From assembly GCA_044352465.1 (NCBI GenBank), contig JBILDU010000012.1, forward strand, positions 1-42,622: a DNA stretch of 42,622 nucleotides, read 5' to 3'. The DNA comes from Bdellovibrionota bacterium (GTDB lineage Bacteria; Bdellovibrionota_C; UBA2361). The notes below the pieces were generated by a model, which saw only the letters and a list, made by a program, of their open reading frames with translations, had not been told where the DNA came from and did not search any database. Below are positions 34,287 to 40,777 of the stretch, piece by piece (the stretch's first letter is position 1; every line of letters begins with the position of its first letter). The position numbers and the translations under genes were made by a program.

Positions 34287-36017
34287 ATGCAAACCACCTC
34301 ACCACTGTCAGCCGCGGAACGAGAAGAGCTCGCAACCCTACTTTTTCCCGACGCCGCTAACCTGCCGACCGTTGAATCGCTGGAGCAGCGCTATCCTCTG
34401 CGGAACCTTGCGCCCGAAGCGATGGTAACCCGGGTTGCTCCAAGCCCGACCGGATTTGCCCATATCGGCTTCGTCTACACGAGCCTTATCAATCGTCGCT
34501 TCGCGCACCAAACCGGCGGTAAATTCCTCCTACGTATCGAAGATACCGATACGAAGCGTGAGGTCTCCGGTGCTTTTGAAACGATCATCAACACCCTTGC
34601 AACCTTTGGTCTCGATCCCGATGAGGGCTTTGTGCGGGGAAAATCGGCTCAGTTTGAGGAGATCGGCGATTACGGCCCCTACCTCCAATCCAATCGACGG
34701 GACATCTATCGAGCGATGACGCTCCACCTGATCCGCACCGGCTTCGCCTATCCATGTTTCTCGACCGAAGAAGAACTCACCCGGGCAAACGAGTTACAGA
34801 CCCTGCAAAAGGTGCGCCCGGGCTATTACGGTAAGTGGGCGGTTTGGCGCGATGCGCCTCTCGCAAAAATTAAATCGGCGCTCACGGAGGGCAAGCCGTT
34901 CGTCGTTCGCCTTCGTACCTTCGGCGACCCGACCCAACGGGTAACCTGGAGCGATGGAGTCAAGGGTGAGATGTCGATGCCGGAGAGCGACCTCGATATC
35001 GTGATCCTCAAGTCAGACGGGCAATCGCTCTACCATTTGGCGCACGCTATGGACGATCACTTTATGCGGATTACTCACGTCGTCCGGGGTGACGAATGGG
35101 TGTCCTCGGTACCGACGCACATCCAAATCTTCAAAGCCTTCGGCTGGCACCACCCCCACTATTCGCACCTCTCAACGATTCAGAAGCTCGAGATGGTAAA
35201 AGAACTCGACGAGGAAACGGGGCAAGAGGTGGAGCGCCAATCGAAGCGAAAGCTCTCAAAGCGCAAAGATCCTGAGGCGAATGCCGCTTACTATGCGGAG
35301 ATGGGGTTCCCGCCCGGAGCTGTTATCGAATATCTACTCAATATCGCTAACTCCGACTTCGAGGATTGGCGCCGCGCGAATCCGGACGCGCCGGACACCG
35401 GATTTCAGATTAAGCTTGGCAAGCTCTCCCCAGCCGGTGCGTTAGCTGACACCGTCAAGCTTGCAAGCATCAGCAAAGAAGTGATCGGCCGTATGCCGAT
35501 CGAGCATCTCCACACCGCGGCGGTGGGATGGGTCCGGCGATACGACGAACCGTTAGCGGCTCTCATGGAGCGGGACTCCGAATACACGCGCCGATGCTTA
35601 AACATCGAGCGCGGTGGGAAGAAGCCAAGCAAACGGATCGCCACGTGGAGAGACCTCCGTCCGCAGATCGGATGGCTCTTCGATGAGATATTCGGGGGCA
35701 TATCAACCTTCGACTATCCCGAGACGATCTCTCCGGAGGATCGCAAAGCGATCGTCGCGGAGTTCCTTAAAACCTACAATCCGACGGACGACCGCGATAC
35801 GTGGTTTGGCAAGTGCAAGGATGTCGCCAAAGCGCTAGGGTTCGCCGCTGAGATGAAGGAATACAAAGCCGCGCCGCAAAACTTTAAAGGGAGTATCGGT
35901 GACCTCACGATGGTACTACGGGTAGCTATCGCTGGTTCACGCCAAAGCCCCGACCTGCACGAGACGATGCAGGTCCTCGGATTAGAGCGTCTCAAGCAGC
36001 GGCTCATGAGGGTCTGA
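34287..36017 (+). CDS. gltX: Glutamate--tRNA ligase (long form)
   Basis: TRVAPSPTGFAHIG, LRIEDTD, YGPYLQS, AYPCF, DDHFMRITHVVRGDEW, KLSKRK, LRVAIAG. Confidence 0.95.
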   Translation: MQTTSPLSAAEREELATLLFPDAANLPTVESLEQRYPLRNLAPEAMVTRVAPSPTGFAHIGFVYTSLINRRFAHQTGGKFLLRIEDTDTKREVSGAFETIINTLATFGLDPDEGFVRGKSAQFEEIGDYGPYLQSNRRDIYRAMTLHLIRTGFAYPCFSTEEELTRANELQTLQKVRPGYYGKWAVWRDAPLAKIKSALTEGKPFVVRLRTFGDPTQRVTWSDGVKGEMSMPESDLDIVILKSDGQSLYHLAHAMDDHFMRITHVVRGDEWVSSVPTHIQIFKAFGWHHPHYSHLSTIQKLEMVKELDEETGQEVERQSKRKLSKRKDPEANAAYYAEMGFPPGAVIEYLLNIANSDFEDWRRANPDAPDTGFQIKLGKLSPAGALADTVKLASISKEVIGRMPIEHLHTAAVGWVRRYDEPLAALMERDSEYTRRCLNIERGGKKPSKRIATWRDLRPQIGWLFDEIFGGISTFDYPETISPEDRKAIVAEFLKTYNPTDDRDTWFGKCKDVAKALGFAAEMKEYKAAPQNFKGSIGDLTMVLRVAIAGSRQSPDLHETMQVLGLERLKQRLMRV

Positions 36018-36131
36018 CGGTCGAGTCCCCAAGCGCTCGATATCCGGACCATGTGAGGTGCCCGAATTTTTTGTGGAGGGGCAGCTAACCAGACGCTGGT
36101 GTGGCGATTTTTTTTAGGGGGGGAGGACGAA

Positions 36132-37079
36132 ATGCGGTCTTTTTTGATCAATCTTTACGTTGGTATCCCTGGGGCGATCGTCGGTTACTAGATCGCAACC
36201 GAGCTTTTAGGCGCGAGTCCCTGGTCTTTTGGCCTCGGAGTCGTGGTTGGTGCGGGGGGTGCGATGCAGCTATTTAGCTGGTGCCGTGGGCGCCGCGATG
36301 AATCTCTTCGCTCCCTTTTCCTCTGGCTTCTCGGTGTCGTACTCGGGTCGGCGGCGGTCCTCCCCCTACTCGATGCCCAACGGGGAGTCGTGCTCCTCAA
36401 CACAAGATCAACCGACGCTCTCGTTTACCCGGTACAATCCGAGAAACGCCCTGTAGCGGTGGTGGATTTAAGCTTTATCGGCTTCTCAGCGACTTTTGCG
36501 GAACGATACAATACCGACACGACACTTGTATTTAACTCCCCAACCGAATTCAACTACACCCAAATCGCCGCGCGAACACACGGCCAAACACTGCGCTGTT
36601 CCCTCACCGTGGGCCTTCCACGAAACCTCCTCGGGACGTTTCTTCCACCGGACACCATGCGCACCCGGATCGAGCTTCCCCTCTCCGCTGAGGCGAAGGC
36701 GAAGTTAAGGGAGGCGCGTTCGTCAGGTGTTGCGCATCCGGTTTTTGAACTGAATCCGAGCGATCTCGACCTTCAGCCGTCCTGGATAAGGCTCCACGAC
36801 GAGGGTGCCCCAGGAGGGCAGGAACGAGCGGAGCTCCCCGCGCCGGTAGATTTCATCCGCACCCCGCCTCACAGCGACACAGTGTTTATTCAGTGGCACG
36901 ACCACTGCTCAGTTTGGCTCGACGCCCTCAGGAGAGAGAGTCTCGGAGTTATGCTTCAGATCGCGGACCAAGAGCGAAAACCACTCCAAGTTCCCGCCGA
37001 GCTCCAACAGGGAATGGCCGCTGCCCTGTGCAAGCTGCCAGCCATAAACTGCCCAGTGCGTCCGACACGCGCCCCCTAA
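36132..37079 (+). pseudogene. Membrane protein gene interrupted by an in-frame TAG at codon 20 (36189-36191)
   Basis: GGAGGA RBS, ATG 36132, MRSFLINLYVGIPGAIVGY*IATELLGASPWSFGLGV, continuing in frame into the 36243..37079 ORF. It may alternatively be expressed from 36243. Confidence 0.6.
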
Positions 37080-37129
37080 TCGGCCCCCATCCAGAGGTCC
37101 GTCTCATAGCTATACAAAAGCCTTATACC

Positions 37130-37172
37130 GGCGGAATCGGCGCGGCAATCGAGGCCGCGCTCGTATTCCGCC
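37130..37172. other. Strong GC-rich hairpin (REP-like or terminator-like) between convergent genes
   Basis: GGCGGAAT-CG-GCGCGGC [AATCGAG] GCCGCGC-t-CG-t-ATTCCGCC: 17 bp with two single-T bulges and no adjacent U-tract. Confidence 0.6.
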
Positions 37173-37203
37173 CACGAGGATGAACACATTTCCAGACGAG
37201 AGA

Positions 37204-37322
37204 CTAGTCCTTCGACCAATAAGTTTTTTCACTCCCGCAGAGTGAAAAACTAACTCAGGACTAGTGGTGAGCATAAATTCTATTACCTTGCAGGTGAAAG
37301 AATTTAATGGTCGAACCACTAG
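37204..37322. repeat. Two inverted copies of a ~61-bp CTAG-bounded imperfect palindrome sharing a central CTAG
   Basis: CTAG at 37204, 37261 and 37319; each unit folds into a two-stem hairpin; the outer 29-nt arms match 24/29 as inverted repeats. Confidence 0.8.
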
Positions 37323-37954
37323 AAGGCACACTCAGCCCCACAGACACCGATAAGGCACGCTTTTTCACAACCGAAGGAGCCGATGCCGCTAAAACTAGAG
37401 CCTGGCTTCGTGGAGAAGCCGACCCCACACGAGCGTCGACATTCCCACTCATTCCTGCTCCGGCACCGGCGGCATTTCGCCGCTCCCGGTTTGGCCGCCT
37501 CCTCAGCCAGGGCGGATCTCCGCGAGGAGGGGCACAATCGCGAAAGACAGGCGAGCCGACACCGGGGCTTGTTCGCGTCATCGCTCTCTCGACACTCGAT
37601 CTCACAACCGCGAGACTCCCCCTCGAGGCAGAGATCAGTTTCCCCAATCGACTCACCTTGTTCCGGTGTCGGAGCGCGCGCCTCCTCGCGACACCGTGAT
37701 TTTAAGCACCGCTCGATACACCGAAAATGCTCTCGGTCGAACTCGGTGCGGCACTGCTCTCCGCACACCCCCCGGTCGCTCTCGCCGCAGACAGAAAGCC
37801 CGCCCGAGGGTGAGGCCACCGCTCCGCAATCGGTCCACTCGCACCTTGATCCGGGGTCTCCCCGTTCCTCGGCGGCGACAGCAGCACAAAACAATCCAAG
37901 AAGGAGCATGAGGGCTAAAAAGACTCTCAGCGGAGGGGGAGTAGTTAATCTCAC
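37319..37954 (-). CDS. Secreted cysteine-rich repeat protein
   Basis: Signal-like LRVFLALMLLLGLFCAAVAA; 22 Cys after it, with three C-x7-C-x3-C-xn-C-x3-C-x4-C repeats. Start uncertain (GTG 37954; track 38023). Confidence 0.75.
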   Translation of the reverse strand: MRLTTPPPLRVFLALMLLLGLFCAAVAAEERGDPGSRCEWTDCGAVASPSGGLSVCGESDRGVCGEQCRTEFDREHFRCIERCLKSRCREEARAPTPEQGESIGETDLCLEGESRGCEIECRESDDANKPRCRLACLSRLCPSSRRSALAEEAAKPGAAKCRRCRSRNEWECRRSCGVGFSTKPGSSFSGIGSFGCEKACLIGVCGAECAF

Positions 37955-38112
37955 AAGGAACTCAACTTCATATCGGTGACTCGAACCCAGTTTAGGCCGG
38001 GAGGAGAGGGCGCTCTGACGCAAGGACTACCCTTTTACGGTAACAACCCCGACCGCGAGGTGACAACCGCGCATCATACGAATCAACTCACTGAAGGGAT
38101 AAAAAGGGTAAA

Positions 38113-39252
38113 ATGACCCATCCCGGCGCCACCCCTCGATCCACTCTTCATATGCTCCCCGTCGAGGAGATCCCTCCCGTTTTAAGCGAGGTCATGGATG
38201 TTCGCATCGCCCTTAGTCGCCCGAACGCGGCGATCTTTAGAGGCCCCCTCCTTACCCCACCGAGCAGAGCCTACGAGCGCCTGAGGCGCGCATTTCCGGA
38301 ACACTCAGTAATCCTCGATGAAGATCCAGAGGTTGGTGCCCGCCTCGCCATCATCCCCAATCTCTCCAACTCGGTGGCGAAGGCTCACCCGGTCGTCGCG
38401 GTGGTGCTCCTACTCCTTACCTTGGTGACGACCACCGTTGCCGGCTCGATTTACGCAGTCGATGCTGTCGATGGTGGAACTATCGCCTTTCTGCGCGGCC
38501 TACCGTATGCACTCGGCCTCATGGCGATCCTGGGAGTTCACGAAATGGGGCATTACGTCGCCGCACGACGGCACAAGATGAGCGTCTCGCTCCCCTATTT
38601 TATACCCGCGCCATCCGCGCTCGGAACGTTTGGAGCTTTCATAAGGCTCAAAAGCCCCGCACCCAACCGGACCGCCCTCTTCGATACCGCGGTATCCGGG
38701 CCGCTAGCCGGCCTCGTCGTCGCGATACCGGTTTTGGTGCTGGGGCTCCGTTCCTCCGAGATTACGACGACACCGCTCGTCCCCCTCGAGACTCCCCTCG
38801 ACTTCGGCCAAGCGAACATCAATGCCTCCCTGCTTTTGGGGATCCTCGCCCGACTCGCGCTCCCAGCACCGCTTGCTGCCGATAGCGTTGTGCTCTTGAG
38901 CCCACTCGCCTTTGCCGGTTGGCTGGGGCTGTTTGTCACAGCGCTGAACCTGGTGCCGATAGGACAGCTCGACGGTGGACACATCATTCAAGCGATGTTC
39001 GGCCGACGTATCGGGGAGGCGATCGGATCCCTTGCAACCGGCCTGCTCCTTTTGATTGCGATATTCTTTGTGCCCGCACTCCTCCTCTGGGCATTGATCG
39101 TCCTGCTCATCGCTGGCCGTCCCGCACCGACGCTCAATGACCTCACCCCGATATCGGTAGGACGACGAATCACCGGCCTGGGGGCGATCCTTCTCTTCCT
39201 AAGCATCATTCTGCCCTACCCCACTGTGAGCCTCTCGGATCTCACCCCGTAA
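38113..39252 (+). CDS. Site-2 protease (peptidase M50)
   Basis: ILGVHEMGH, SLPYFIP, GTFGAFI, SGPLAG, ALNLVPIGQLDGGHI; multiple TMs. Confidence 0.93.
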   Translation: MTHPGATPRSTLHMLPVEEIPPVLSEVMDVRIALSRPNAAIFRGPLLTPPSRAYERLRRAFPEHSVILDEDPEVGARLAIIPNLSNSVAKAHPVVAVVLLLLTLVTTTVAGSIYAVDAVDGGTIAFLRGLPYALGLMAILGVHEMGHYVAARRHKMSVSLPYFIPAPSALGTFGAFIRLKSPAPNRTALFDTAVSGPLAGLVVAIPVLVLGLRSSEITTTPLVPLETPLDFGQANINASLLLGILARLALPAPLAADSVVLLSPLAFAGWLGLFVTALNLVPIGQLDGGHIIQAMFGRRIGEAIGSLATGLLLLIAIFFVPALLLWALIVLLIAGRPAPTLNDLTPISVGRRITGLGAILLFLSIILPYPTVSLSDLTP

Positions 39253-39424
39253 GATTTTCTACCGGCGCGAGGCTCTCCAAGCGGGATATGAGCGCGGCCA
39301 GGACAGGCGCCCCGAATTATGAGCCCGAGTCTGGTTGCTCTTTTTAGACCCCCCGCTCGTCTGTTGTCTTTTTGTACCTCCACCACTGGCTATCCGCCCC
39401 AAGGCTCGCTAGCATCTGGCGTGT

Positions 39425-40777
39425 ATGCGCGCCATTCACACCCGCAAAGCGGCCCTTGAAATACTCGTTCGCTCAGAGACTCGGGGAGCGTTCTCGTCGG
39501 AGCTGCTCGCGCGGGCGGCCCGATCAAAAGCGATTCACCTTCCCCTCCTGCAACGGCTCGTCAAAGGAACGATCGAGTGGCGTGGCCGTATCGACGACGA
39601 ACTCGCCGCTCGGATACCCCGCCCCCTCTCGCAGTACTCTCCCACCGCCCGCAATATCTTGCGCCTTGCCGCCTATCAGCTCCTCTTTCTTGAACGTGTC
39701 CCGTATGAACGGGTGGTTACCGAATCGGCAGCGCTCCTTTCAACCGAGAAAGTGTCCATTCGCGAGGAGGTACGCGGCGTCATTGAGGGACTACGCAACA
39801 AAAGTCCCGCAGCAAAGCCTCCCCGTACTCCGGAAACAGCCGCGGAGATCGCACGATACTACAGCCACCCCGAATGGCTTATCGAACGCTGGATCGCGAC
39901 ACTCGGGGTCGCCGAGACTCGGCGACTCTGCGGGGCAAACAACCGCGCCTGGCCGGTCTCGATTCGAGCGAACACACTGCGCATATCCCCTCACCAACTC
40001 GCCAAGACCCTGGCGCGCGAAGGAGTCACCACGGCTCCGTCGCGGTATGTGCCGGAGTGTCTGGTTATCAAATCACTTCCCCGCGGGATTCGGCTCGACC
40101 AACTGGAGGGGTTTCAACGGGGCATGTTTCAGGTTCAAGATGAGAGCGCCGCACTCGTCGGGCATCTCATGTCACCGCGCGCCAACGATTTCGTGATCGA
40201 TCTGTGCGCTGCCCCCGGAGGGAAGGCGACCCACCTCGCCACTCTCATGCGCAACCGCGGCGAGGTCTTAGCGCTCGATCTTAATGCCACTCGACTCCGC
40301 TCGATAACCCAGAACTCCCGTCGCCTGGGGCTTTCGATCGTCAAGACACGCGCGGGAGACGCGGCGAAGCTACGCTCCAAACATCTCGCCGACCGGGTGT
40401 TGCTCGATGCGCCGTGCTCCGGATTCGGTGTGCTCGGGAGAAAAACGGATATCCGCTGGGCGAAGACCCCCGCTACTATCAAGGAGCTCGTGGTGCTGCA
40501 AACGAAACTTATCGATCACGCCGCGACCCTGGTTCGCCCGGGCGGAGTCCTCGTCTACAGCACGTGTACGGTGGAGCGCGAGGAGAACGAGGGGATTATC
40601 GAGGCCTTCCTTGATCGACATCCCGACTTCCAACTGCTCCCGCCGCCAGCTGAATTACCGAAGAGCCTCTTTCACGGGAACTACCTTCGAACATGGCCTC
40701 ATCGCCACGGTATCGGTGGCGCATTCGCAGCAGCTCTAGCCCGGGTCACCCCCCCTCAGAGGGGCAATGCAGGCTAG
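39425..40777 (+). CDS. rsmB: 16S rRNA m5C967 methyltransferase RsmB/Sun
   Basis: NusB-like N-terminus (ILRLAAYQLLFL); YSHPEWL; VQDES; DLCAAPGGKA; DAPCSG; YSTCT. Confidence 0.93.
   Translation: MRAIHTRKAALEILVRSETRGAFSSELLARAARSKAIHLPLLQRLVKGTIEWRGRIDDELAARIPRPLSQYSPTARNILRLAAYQLLFLERVPYERVVTESAALLSTEKVSIREEVRGVIEGLRNKSPAAKPPRTPETAAEIARYYSHPEWLIERWIATLGVAETRRLCGANNRAWPVSIRANTLRISPHQLAKTLAREGVTTAPSRYVPECLVIKSLPRGIRLDQLEGFQRGMFQVQDESAALVGHLMSPRANDFVIDLCAAPGGKATHLATLMRNRGEVLALDLNATRLRSITQNSRRLGLSIVKTRAGDAAKLRSKHLADRVLLDAPCSGFGVLGRKTDIRWAKTPATIKELVVLQTKLIDHAATLVRPGGVLVYSTCTVEREENEGIIEAFLDRHPDFQLLPPPAELPKSLFHGNYLRTWPHRHGIGGAFAAALARVTPPQRGNAG

Follow-up and report, generated by a model that had tools for sequence, protein, structure and literature searches.

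A gene-less 119-bp repeat at CTAG in a Bdellovibrionota genome displays IS630-type ends and two self-complementary arms

Introduction

Insertion sequences of the IS630 family, including ISY100, are bounded by TA and transpose by cut-and-paste, with duplication of TA; the reaction is catalysed by a DDE transposase with an N-terminal HTH, and about 30 bp of each end suffices, according to the available text of PMC2170065. TA-bounded ends are also displayed by a 119-bp repeat, termed here the 119-mer, at positions 37204-37322 of a 42,622-nt stretch of DNA from a Bdellovibrionota bacterium (contig JBILDU010000012.1; the whole stretch is referred to as the window). Unlike complete IS630 elements, which have near-identical tips and no inner copy of their ends, the 119-mer contains no transposase.

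Several short repeats share part of this organization. RUP of Streptococcus pneumoniae, the closest of them and found with IS630-Spn1, is likewise about 110 bp, gene-less and intergenic, with IS630-like terminal repeats, TA at its ends and recent near-identical copies (PMC2229807, in the part of the review available). The 119-mer differs from RUP, as described there, in its unrelated sequence, its strict CTAG context, the inner inverted copy within each end and a parent element that was not found in the same assembly. CIR, from Caulobacter and Brucella, is also about 110 bp and intergenic and offers a precedent for two separately folding arms in place of a single stem joining the ends, a fold that is clear in five relatives of the 119-mer and weakly predicted for its own arm 1, while the table in the available part of the same review gives it no terminal inverted repeats and a GANTC site (PMC2229807). 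In contrast with that description, terminal repeats are present in the 119-mer, its IS family has been identified, both of its arms are bounded by CTAG, and GANTC is absent from its 119 bp. MITEPsy1 of Pseudomonas syringae is a 100-nt MITE inserting at CTAG, but its IS5-related 18-nt repeats start with GGAAGG, it also uses YTAA, and the available text describes no arms (PMC3189936).

Within an incomplete coverage of the literature, neither the 119-mer family nor covariation of the arms of IS630 MITEs was found to be described. The 119-mer belongs to a known kind of genomic parasite, most probably the IS630-type MITEs, and what sets it apart is confined to its pair of self-complementary arms. 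Composite transposons such as Tn5 also consist of two inverted, end-bearing units, of which the outer ends are used. The units of the 119-mer differ from those of Tn5 in being 61-62 bp long and gene-less, in sharing one CTAG and in enclosing nothing. The Tn5-type composite structure is presented in the accessible portion of PMC10969869, and the cMITE catalogue of PMC11602168, to judge from the part available, could list the present sequence.

Here we describe the organization, copies, empty sites and relatives of the 119-mer. The stretch is interpreted, with a probability of roughly 85%, as a multicopy gene-less element residing at CTAG, with outer ends that match those of IS630 elements and an IS630 transposase acting in trans as the likely agent that moves the whole unit.

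Results and Discussion

Organization of the 119-mer

Three CTAG tetranucleotides start at positions 37204, 37261 and 37319, spaced by 57 and 58 bp, and define two units. An earlier note, made from the window alone, had listed these sites together with four stems and characteristic end motifs, and all are present in the sequence, which contains both 8-bp terminal stems, both AT-rich inner stems and the motifs CTAGTnnTTCGACCA (outer ends) and CTAGTnnTGAG (inner ends). Its view of the units as inverted homologues also holds, since 45 of 64 columns agree when unit 1 is aligned with unit 2 in reverse complement. The same note missed a 29-nt inverted repeat formed by the two outer ends, which are 83% complementary, as well as the competition of the two arms for the central CTAG. 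The features are as follows.

37204..37322, no strand: whole repeat footprint, CTAG to CTAG, 119 bp, corresponding to a net insertion of 115 bp
37207..37319, no strand: probable element proper if TA is duplicated, 113 bp, as expected from the IS630 mechanism
37208-37318, no strand: element proper if all of CTAG is duplicated, 111 bp
37204..37207, no strand: left CTAG, seen in the sequence; on an IS630 reading it would comprise the target C, the TA duplication and the first G of the element
37204..37232, plus strand: left outer inverted repeat, 29 nt including CTAG, with a variable tip followed by a conserved motif
37221-37232, plus strand: conserved motif AAGTTTTTTCAC, within the left outer repeat and inward of the variable tip
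37294..37322, minus strand: right outer inverted repeat, 29 nt including CTAG
37204..37264, no strand: arm 1, 61 nt, consisting of the outer repeat and a shortened inverted copy ending in the central CTAG
37261..37322, no strand: arm 2, 62 nt, with the plan of arm 1 in opposite orientation
37261..37264, no strand: central CTAG, common to both arms
37319..37322, no strand: right CTAG, of which 37319-37321 is the TAG stop, on the minus strand, of a Cys-rich ORF
37319..38023, minus strand: Cys-rich ORF of 234 aa, a host gene and not part of the element

The footprint ends at 37204 and 37322 are common to 21 copies in this genome, whose flanks are unrelated, and loose contig ends gather at, or a few bases from, the same two positions. 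Duplication of TA and duplication of CTAG are indistinguishable from sequence alone, and by analogy with IS630 the 113-bp limits are the probable ones. The motif AAGTTTTTTCAC is a likely candidate for the transposase-binding site. A homologue of arm 2 stands alone in another genome, G019 (L003; 50 of 62 nt). Relatives of the 119-mer display two inner CTAGs at the centre, separated by a spacer of about 40-50 nt, so that the 119-mer, with its one central CTAG, corresponds to an arm-spacer-arm plan without the spacer.

Copies and genomic distribution

A BLAST search of this genome (G000) revealed 21 copies on 18 contigs, 19 of them full and two cut by contig ends. Eight of the 19 full copies are identical to the consensus, eight have one difference and three have 3-4. 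The copies are dispersed singly, with at most two per contig and these far apart, and form no cassette arrays. Besides the 21 copies, C7:29416 retains a single end only, and the same search found no solo unit 1 or unit 2 (61-62 bp). It is the 119-mer as a whole that moves, and not each hairpin. In the congener G001 at least 40 copies are present, 94-98% alike, the count being a lower bound as 40 of 95 candidates were scored. Full-length matches among 41 genomes were confined to these two, the others displaying matches to the first 29-31 nt or to one arm. The earlier proposal of a miniature mobile element at CTAG, acted on in trans, is thus borne out by many copies and by the empty sites described below; its action in trans is inferred.

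CTAG bounds both ends in 42 of 47 full copies, and the remaining five deviate at one end only. The tetranucleotide is under-represented in this genome (0.59 of expected). The CTAG occupied by a copy belongs to an older end in 3 of 21 cases, compared with 18 of the 1888 remaining CTAGs (p=0.0013), with a fourth case on C97. The genome further contains 89 end-motif matches outside the 21 copies (e.g. L293-L312). Older arms among its sequences are 48-62 nt long with matched tips, many have ends that read CTCG and CGAG instead of CTAG, and at pair 3-62 they present 10 A-T, 6 C-G and 11 unpaired combinations. Many old arms resemble lone units; several of these share downstream sequence and may be the ends of longer decayed elements, and they were left out as proof of lone mobility.

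The consensus sequences of the two genomes differ at 1 of 119 sites, while the flanking sequences are mostly 65-89% identical. A near-identical element in diverged genomes suggests, as far as sequence comparison goes, a recent transfer between the two species. In sequencing run X6, 105 contigs matched the 2-kb stretch around window positions 37204-37322, 32 of them only 90-95% alike, and the summed depth was 760-960 over the element against 0-12 beside it, which points to many insertions and variants in that sample. A blastn search of a plasmid collection gave no match to the element. Viral contigs had no match to the strict end motif or to the central junction, and a transposase was confirmed in none of 17 stretches; the loose motif recovered seven stretches, namely one 131-bp element with the same end motif (L393:2501-2631) and six copies of one unpaired match.

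Empty sites

Sites lacking the element were observed at two positions other than that of the window (both copies at L290), where contigs of runs X8, X9 and X10, which derive from one study of a related strain, cross without the element and retain one CTAG. At the first, a C run is longer by one C, which lowers the 115 bp to a net difference of 114 bp; at the second, a 6-nt indel raises it to 121 bp, and one substitution is present as well. The net insertion is 115 bp. No clean empty allele was seen for the copy in the window, where the element is missing from run X8 but 135 other letters are present, and G001 is without the whole 1.3-kb region. Eight sites in G001 were too diverged from this genome to display clean empty sites.

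These single-CTAG sites fit duplication of TA and of four bases equally well. They are in that respect compatible with an IS5-, IS4- or IS701-type MITE whose target duplication takes in the entire CTAG, like that of MITEPsy1, which duplicates CTAG or YTAA (PMC3189936, available text). The transposases expected of such a parent were not encountered, as DDE_5 had no match in five of five genomes, DDE_Tnp_1 had none in G000 or G001, and nine DDE_Tnp_1 loci were without a good match to the end motif. The only complete element among the end-motif matches listed codes for an IS630 transposase. An IS5/IS701 parentage, raised in the earlier note, is thereby rendered very improbable, as the ends match no transposase-bearing element of that kind in these genomes and loci and are of IS630 type.

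Neighbouring genes and stop codons

The right CTAG does hold the minus-strand TAG of the Cys-rich ORF, as had been noted, but the element did not supply this stop. The orthologue in G001 (L288) is element-free and ends in TAG; the stop is therefore older than the insertion, and the element landed on it. The Cys-rich ORF has an N-terminal hydrophobic stretch and no Pfam match at E<=0.01, and among four relatives searched a homologue was found in G001 only, with 77% identity over the C-terminal 109 aa. A 278-aa ORF at window positions 36243-37079, without a Pfam match, lies between gltX and the Cys-rich gene; in G001 this ORF is absent and the two genes are adjacent. As for a promoter or terminator role, no promoter-like site was detected in the element, and one terminator-like site was found against 0.7 expected.

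Copies coincide with stops more frequently than the remaining CTAGs of the genome do: 7 of 21 copies fall on the stop of an ORF of at least 100 aa, compared with 272 of those 1888 CTAGs (p=0.025), a count based on crude ORF calls. This overlap is attributed to TAG being part of the target and to survival outside genes. It also recalls integron attC sites, as does the stem, internal loop and stem fold of about 60 nt, and an attC-like single-stranded recombination site with a CTAG core, served by a tyrosine recombinase, can be envisaged. Such a site is the least probable of the readings considered here, since RYYYAAC and GTTRRRY are absent on either strand (in agreement with the mismatch to the attC consensus already noticed), the integron-integrase model TIGR02249 is unmatched in G000 and G001, copies in G000 are dispersed with no cassette arrays, and empty sites lose the whole element while the flanking genes remain. 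The proposed new recombination site is likewise unsupported; the case cautions that covariation alone does not show a mobile repeat to be a novel site of recombination or a novel RNA. No Rfam family that would identify the repeat was matched at gathering score, window positions 35500-39500 giving one chance match (E 3.6) and five related loci none.

Relationship to IS630 elements

A scan with the end motif recovered at least 122 stretches, and Bdellovibrionales, Oligoflexia, a delta proteobacterium, Verrucomicrobia and Fibrobacterota MAGs are represented among the matches listed. Relatives of 100-277 bp share the same 29-nt end and have different interiors. The only complete element among the listed matches, L106, is 1209 bp long with inverted repeats identical at 28 of 29 nt and codes for an IS630 transposase (NF033545, 206 bits, cut-off 100) that is about 40% identical to ISPna1-like proteins. 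Located at L106:1321-2529, it splits the istB gene of an IS21 element into parts covering Pfam positions 3-151 and 155-227. Its ends match those of the 119-mer at 21 of 29 nt, although, as L106 was chosen by end motif, this match is not independent.

A search with the L106 protein yielded 80 metagenome loci and five genome loci, which together with three earlier loci made 88 examined. Inverted repeats at 18 of 26 nt or better were found at 54 of the 88, and 42 of the 88 were anchored on TAG at both ends, with CTAGT at both in 40 of these 42. Four elements found by protein and not by DNA (L203, L204, L206 and L284) match the 119-mer ends at 21-22 of 29 nt, while the remaining 37 anchored elements match at 12-19. 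The best match to any complete element is thus 22 of 29, and an exact partner is absent from the set. The closest transposase proteins carry the ends most like those of the 119-mer (21-22 of 29 nt), though over 41 elements transposase identity to L106 is only weakly correlated with end similarity (rho 0.28, p=0.07). IS630 elements of the L106 clade are present in two genomes of the same order, G019 and G085, the former of which also has 186-bp elements with matching ends.

Neither G000 (94.9% complete) nor G001 (78% complete) yielded an IS630 transposase, whole or in part. In G000 searches with DDE_3, DDE_5, DDE_Tnp_1 and NF033545, tblastn with 12 proteins and a six-frame profile search were all blank. 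The missing enzyme may be unassembled, lost or supplied from outside, and since the assembly of this genome yielded no IS630 gene, mobilisation in trans is something we can only infer. Two other groups of IS630 elements, L066 (G034) and those of G103, were considered and rejected, as their ends differ from those of the 119-mer. The G103 loci (L381, L383, L385-L387) represent a partly deleted IS630-like family that is unrelated to the L106 clade by tblastn and has a short, nearly perfect palindrome in the end region common to its members.

With copies, empty sites and parent family all in hand, the 119-mer is an ordinary but well documented MITE. Judging by the title of a 1991 study by Tenzen and Ohtsubo, IS630 reportedly prefers the TA in CTAG. 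From knowledge of the family, the transposase would bind the conserved motif, which lies some 15-26 nt inward of either outer end, cut at the two outer tips and insert the element at the TA of a CTAG, with duplication of TA. Each arm may then be viewed as an outer end followed by a decayed inverted copy of that end, probably left by mini-elements that inserted into one another's CTAG. The 119-mer would be the most compact form of this nesting, in which the spacer between two inner CTAGs is gone.

A different enzyme could be proposed on the grounds that the arms are stable single-stranded hairpins and that this genome has three Y1 open frames of 326-331 aa (L366 on G000:C3, L370 on G000:C164 and one at G000:C109:about 1280-2270), with several others in G120, G103 and G115. 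The 119-mer would then be a hairpin of REP/REPIN type that a RAYT-like HUH enzyme mobilises in single-stranded form, a parallel drawn in the earlier note. This is hardly probable. None of the three Y1 genes in this genome is flanked by the 119-mer, whereas two are flanked by a different repeat. In addition, the arm model applied to ten Y1 loci reached E<0.01 only at L364, about 1.4 kb from the gene, and G001 (78% complete), with at least 40 copies, has no Y1 match. To our knowledge, target duplication and IS630-like ends are not features of REP sequences. The repeat beside the two Y1 frames is a tandem 17-nt repeat, found 21 times on eight contigs. An IS110-derived element was also rejected, as this genome has one partial IS110 gene and the longest shared word is 9 nt; that gene (L389, G000:C126:231-653) lies near a contig end, beside another short repeated mobile fragment.

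Covariation within the arms

A model of the 60-nt unit, with 60 candidates scored per genome, matched at least 30 of 91 genomes of the order. Ten genomes outside model-building (G103, G115, G089, G035, G116, G032, G101, G117, G112 and G091) carry the arm-spacer-arm plan, in elements mostly of 150-166 bp with inner CTAGs on one or both sides; arm-bearing relatives overall measure 150-225 bp. Ten or more further genomes of the order thus display the plan, each time with matched tips that differ in sequence, and it is absent from the parents, as an inner copy was found in 1 of 42 left and 0 of 42 right ends of complete IS630 elements. The arms are accordingly not explained by the parent.

Thirty-four arms from 33 non-redundant complete elements were anchored on an inner CTAG-like motif alone, disregarding pairing. 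Their inner copy forms on average 5.15 of 8 pairs with its own tip and 3.18 of 8 with the far tip, own-tip pairing being better in 27 arms, equal in five and worse in two. Among non-redundant ends, 11 of 93 reach at least 7 of 8 pairs against 1.6% in permutations, and 0 of 1000 permutations reach the observed mean tip pairing. A third measure gave a covariation score of 0.374 against 0.173 for 27 hand-picked arms and is biased, these having been picked partly for pairing. Kinship among families inflates all three measures, so that the counts overstate independence. Covariation across homologues, claimed earlier from the two units, is nonetheless real beyond the 119-mer.

What keeps tip and inner copy matched can be approached from several directions. 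Correction of short inverted repeats by template switching, which operates in bacteria and can mimic compensation (PMC5941160, available text), is the leading explanation, though it falls short of an even chance. Selection for the arm fold comes second and is plausible, and something else is the remaining possibility. A passive origin is favoured because nested insertions occur above chance, some arms consist of two end copies back to back, template switching is available as a process, stems are not spared (variants fall in tip stems in 18 of 67 cases against 15.8 expected, so that young copies display no depletion) and wobble mismatches have no strand bias (7 G-T against 10 A-C, a small sample of 17). 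Selection is favoured because loops have diverged to noise while tips are still matched, left and right tips have drifted apart, and arm length is steady at 61-62 or about 47-56 nt. The arms of the 119-mer are 61-62 nt long despite their differing inner register, which simple decay would not predict.

An extension of the IS630 reading that concerns the arms only, and keeps the same ends, holds that the arm fold is a working part under selection. Each end would pair with the inner copy in its arm, the target-derived CTAG included. The fold might block an end-to-end hairpin and with it slippage excision or RNase III cutting, or the arms might be separable transposition modules. Besides the tip pairing, this possibility draws on two-sided changes between close copies in G120 (L343 compared with L347 and L348) and on lone arms with CTAG at both ends (L314, L316 and L338), although each of the latter is a single case and could be a deletion product. 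Arm-less elements with the same ends are also abundant, several MITE families (G019, G034, G014) lacking the inner copy, which together with the unspared stems and the capacity of template switching to mimic compensation (PMC5941160, available text) makes a working fold rather unlikely.

More speculative still is the view that these elements form a lineage of IS630-type miniature transposons with evolved folding ends, in which an inner guide is complementary both to its own tip and to the target-derived CTAG and has been selected for its fold. The fold would govern transposition or survival, either by blocking end-to-end excision or by allowing exchange of arms through cutting and rejoining at inner CTAGs. 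If true, it would add a structure-dependent layer to a DDE system otherwise expected to recognise nothing but duplex ends. Of the arm-bearing versions found, the 119-mer is the smallest and therefore a cheap substrate for asking whether DNA or RNA folding influences how well non-autonomous transposons fare or whether template switching alone accounts for such covariation.

Predicted folding of the two arms

Folded alone as single-stranded DNA, unit 1 has a predicted energy of -11.6 kcal/mol (z -5.1) and unit 2 of -15.2 kcal/mol (z -7.3), and in each case 0 of 200 shuffles was as good. Because the arms share one central CTAG, both full stems cannot coexist. Within the whole 119-mer, within-arm pairing of the arm-1 tip is weakly predicted at 0.09 and 0.13 on the two strands, which speaks against a working arm fold, and that of the arm-2 tip at 0.84 and 0.14. 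In five arm-bearing relatives pairing is predicted to stay within each arm (0.64-1.0), with at most 0.05 between the two ends, which favours a working fold, whereas three arm-less relatives are predicted to pair end to end (0.89-1.0). The predicted fold thus separates arm-bearing from arm-less types sharply in the relatives and less so in the 119-mer.

By eye, the tip of L106 can pair in part with the ribosome site of the same element, which lies about 100 nt further inward. Inheritance of the arms from a stem hiding the ribosome site at the parent's left end was considered, and it was unsupported at 44-66 nt. In G120, REP-like palindromes have inserted in the spacer of L344, L345 and L347, giving 176-, 201- and 224-bp versions of the element.
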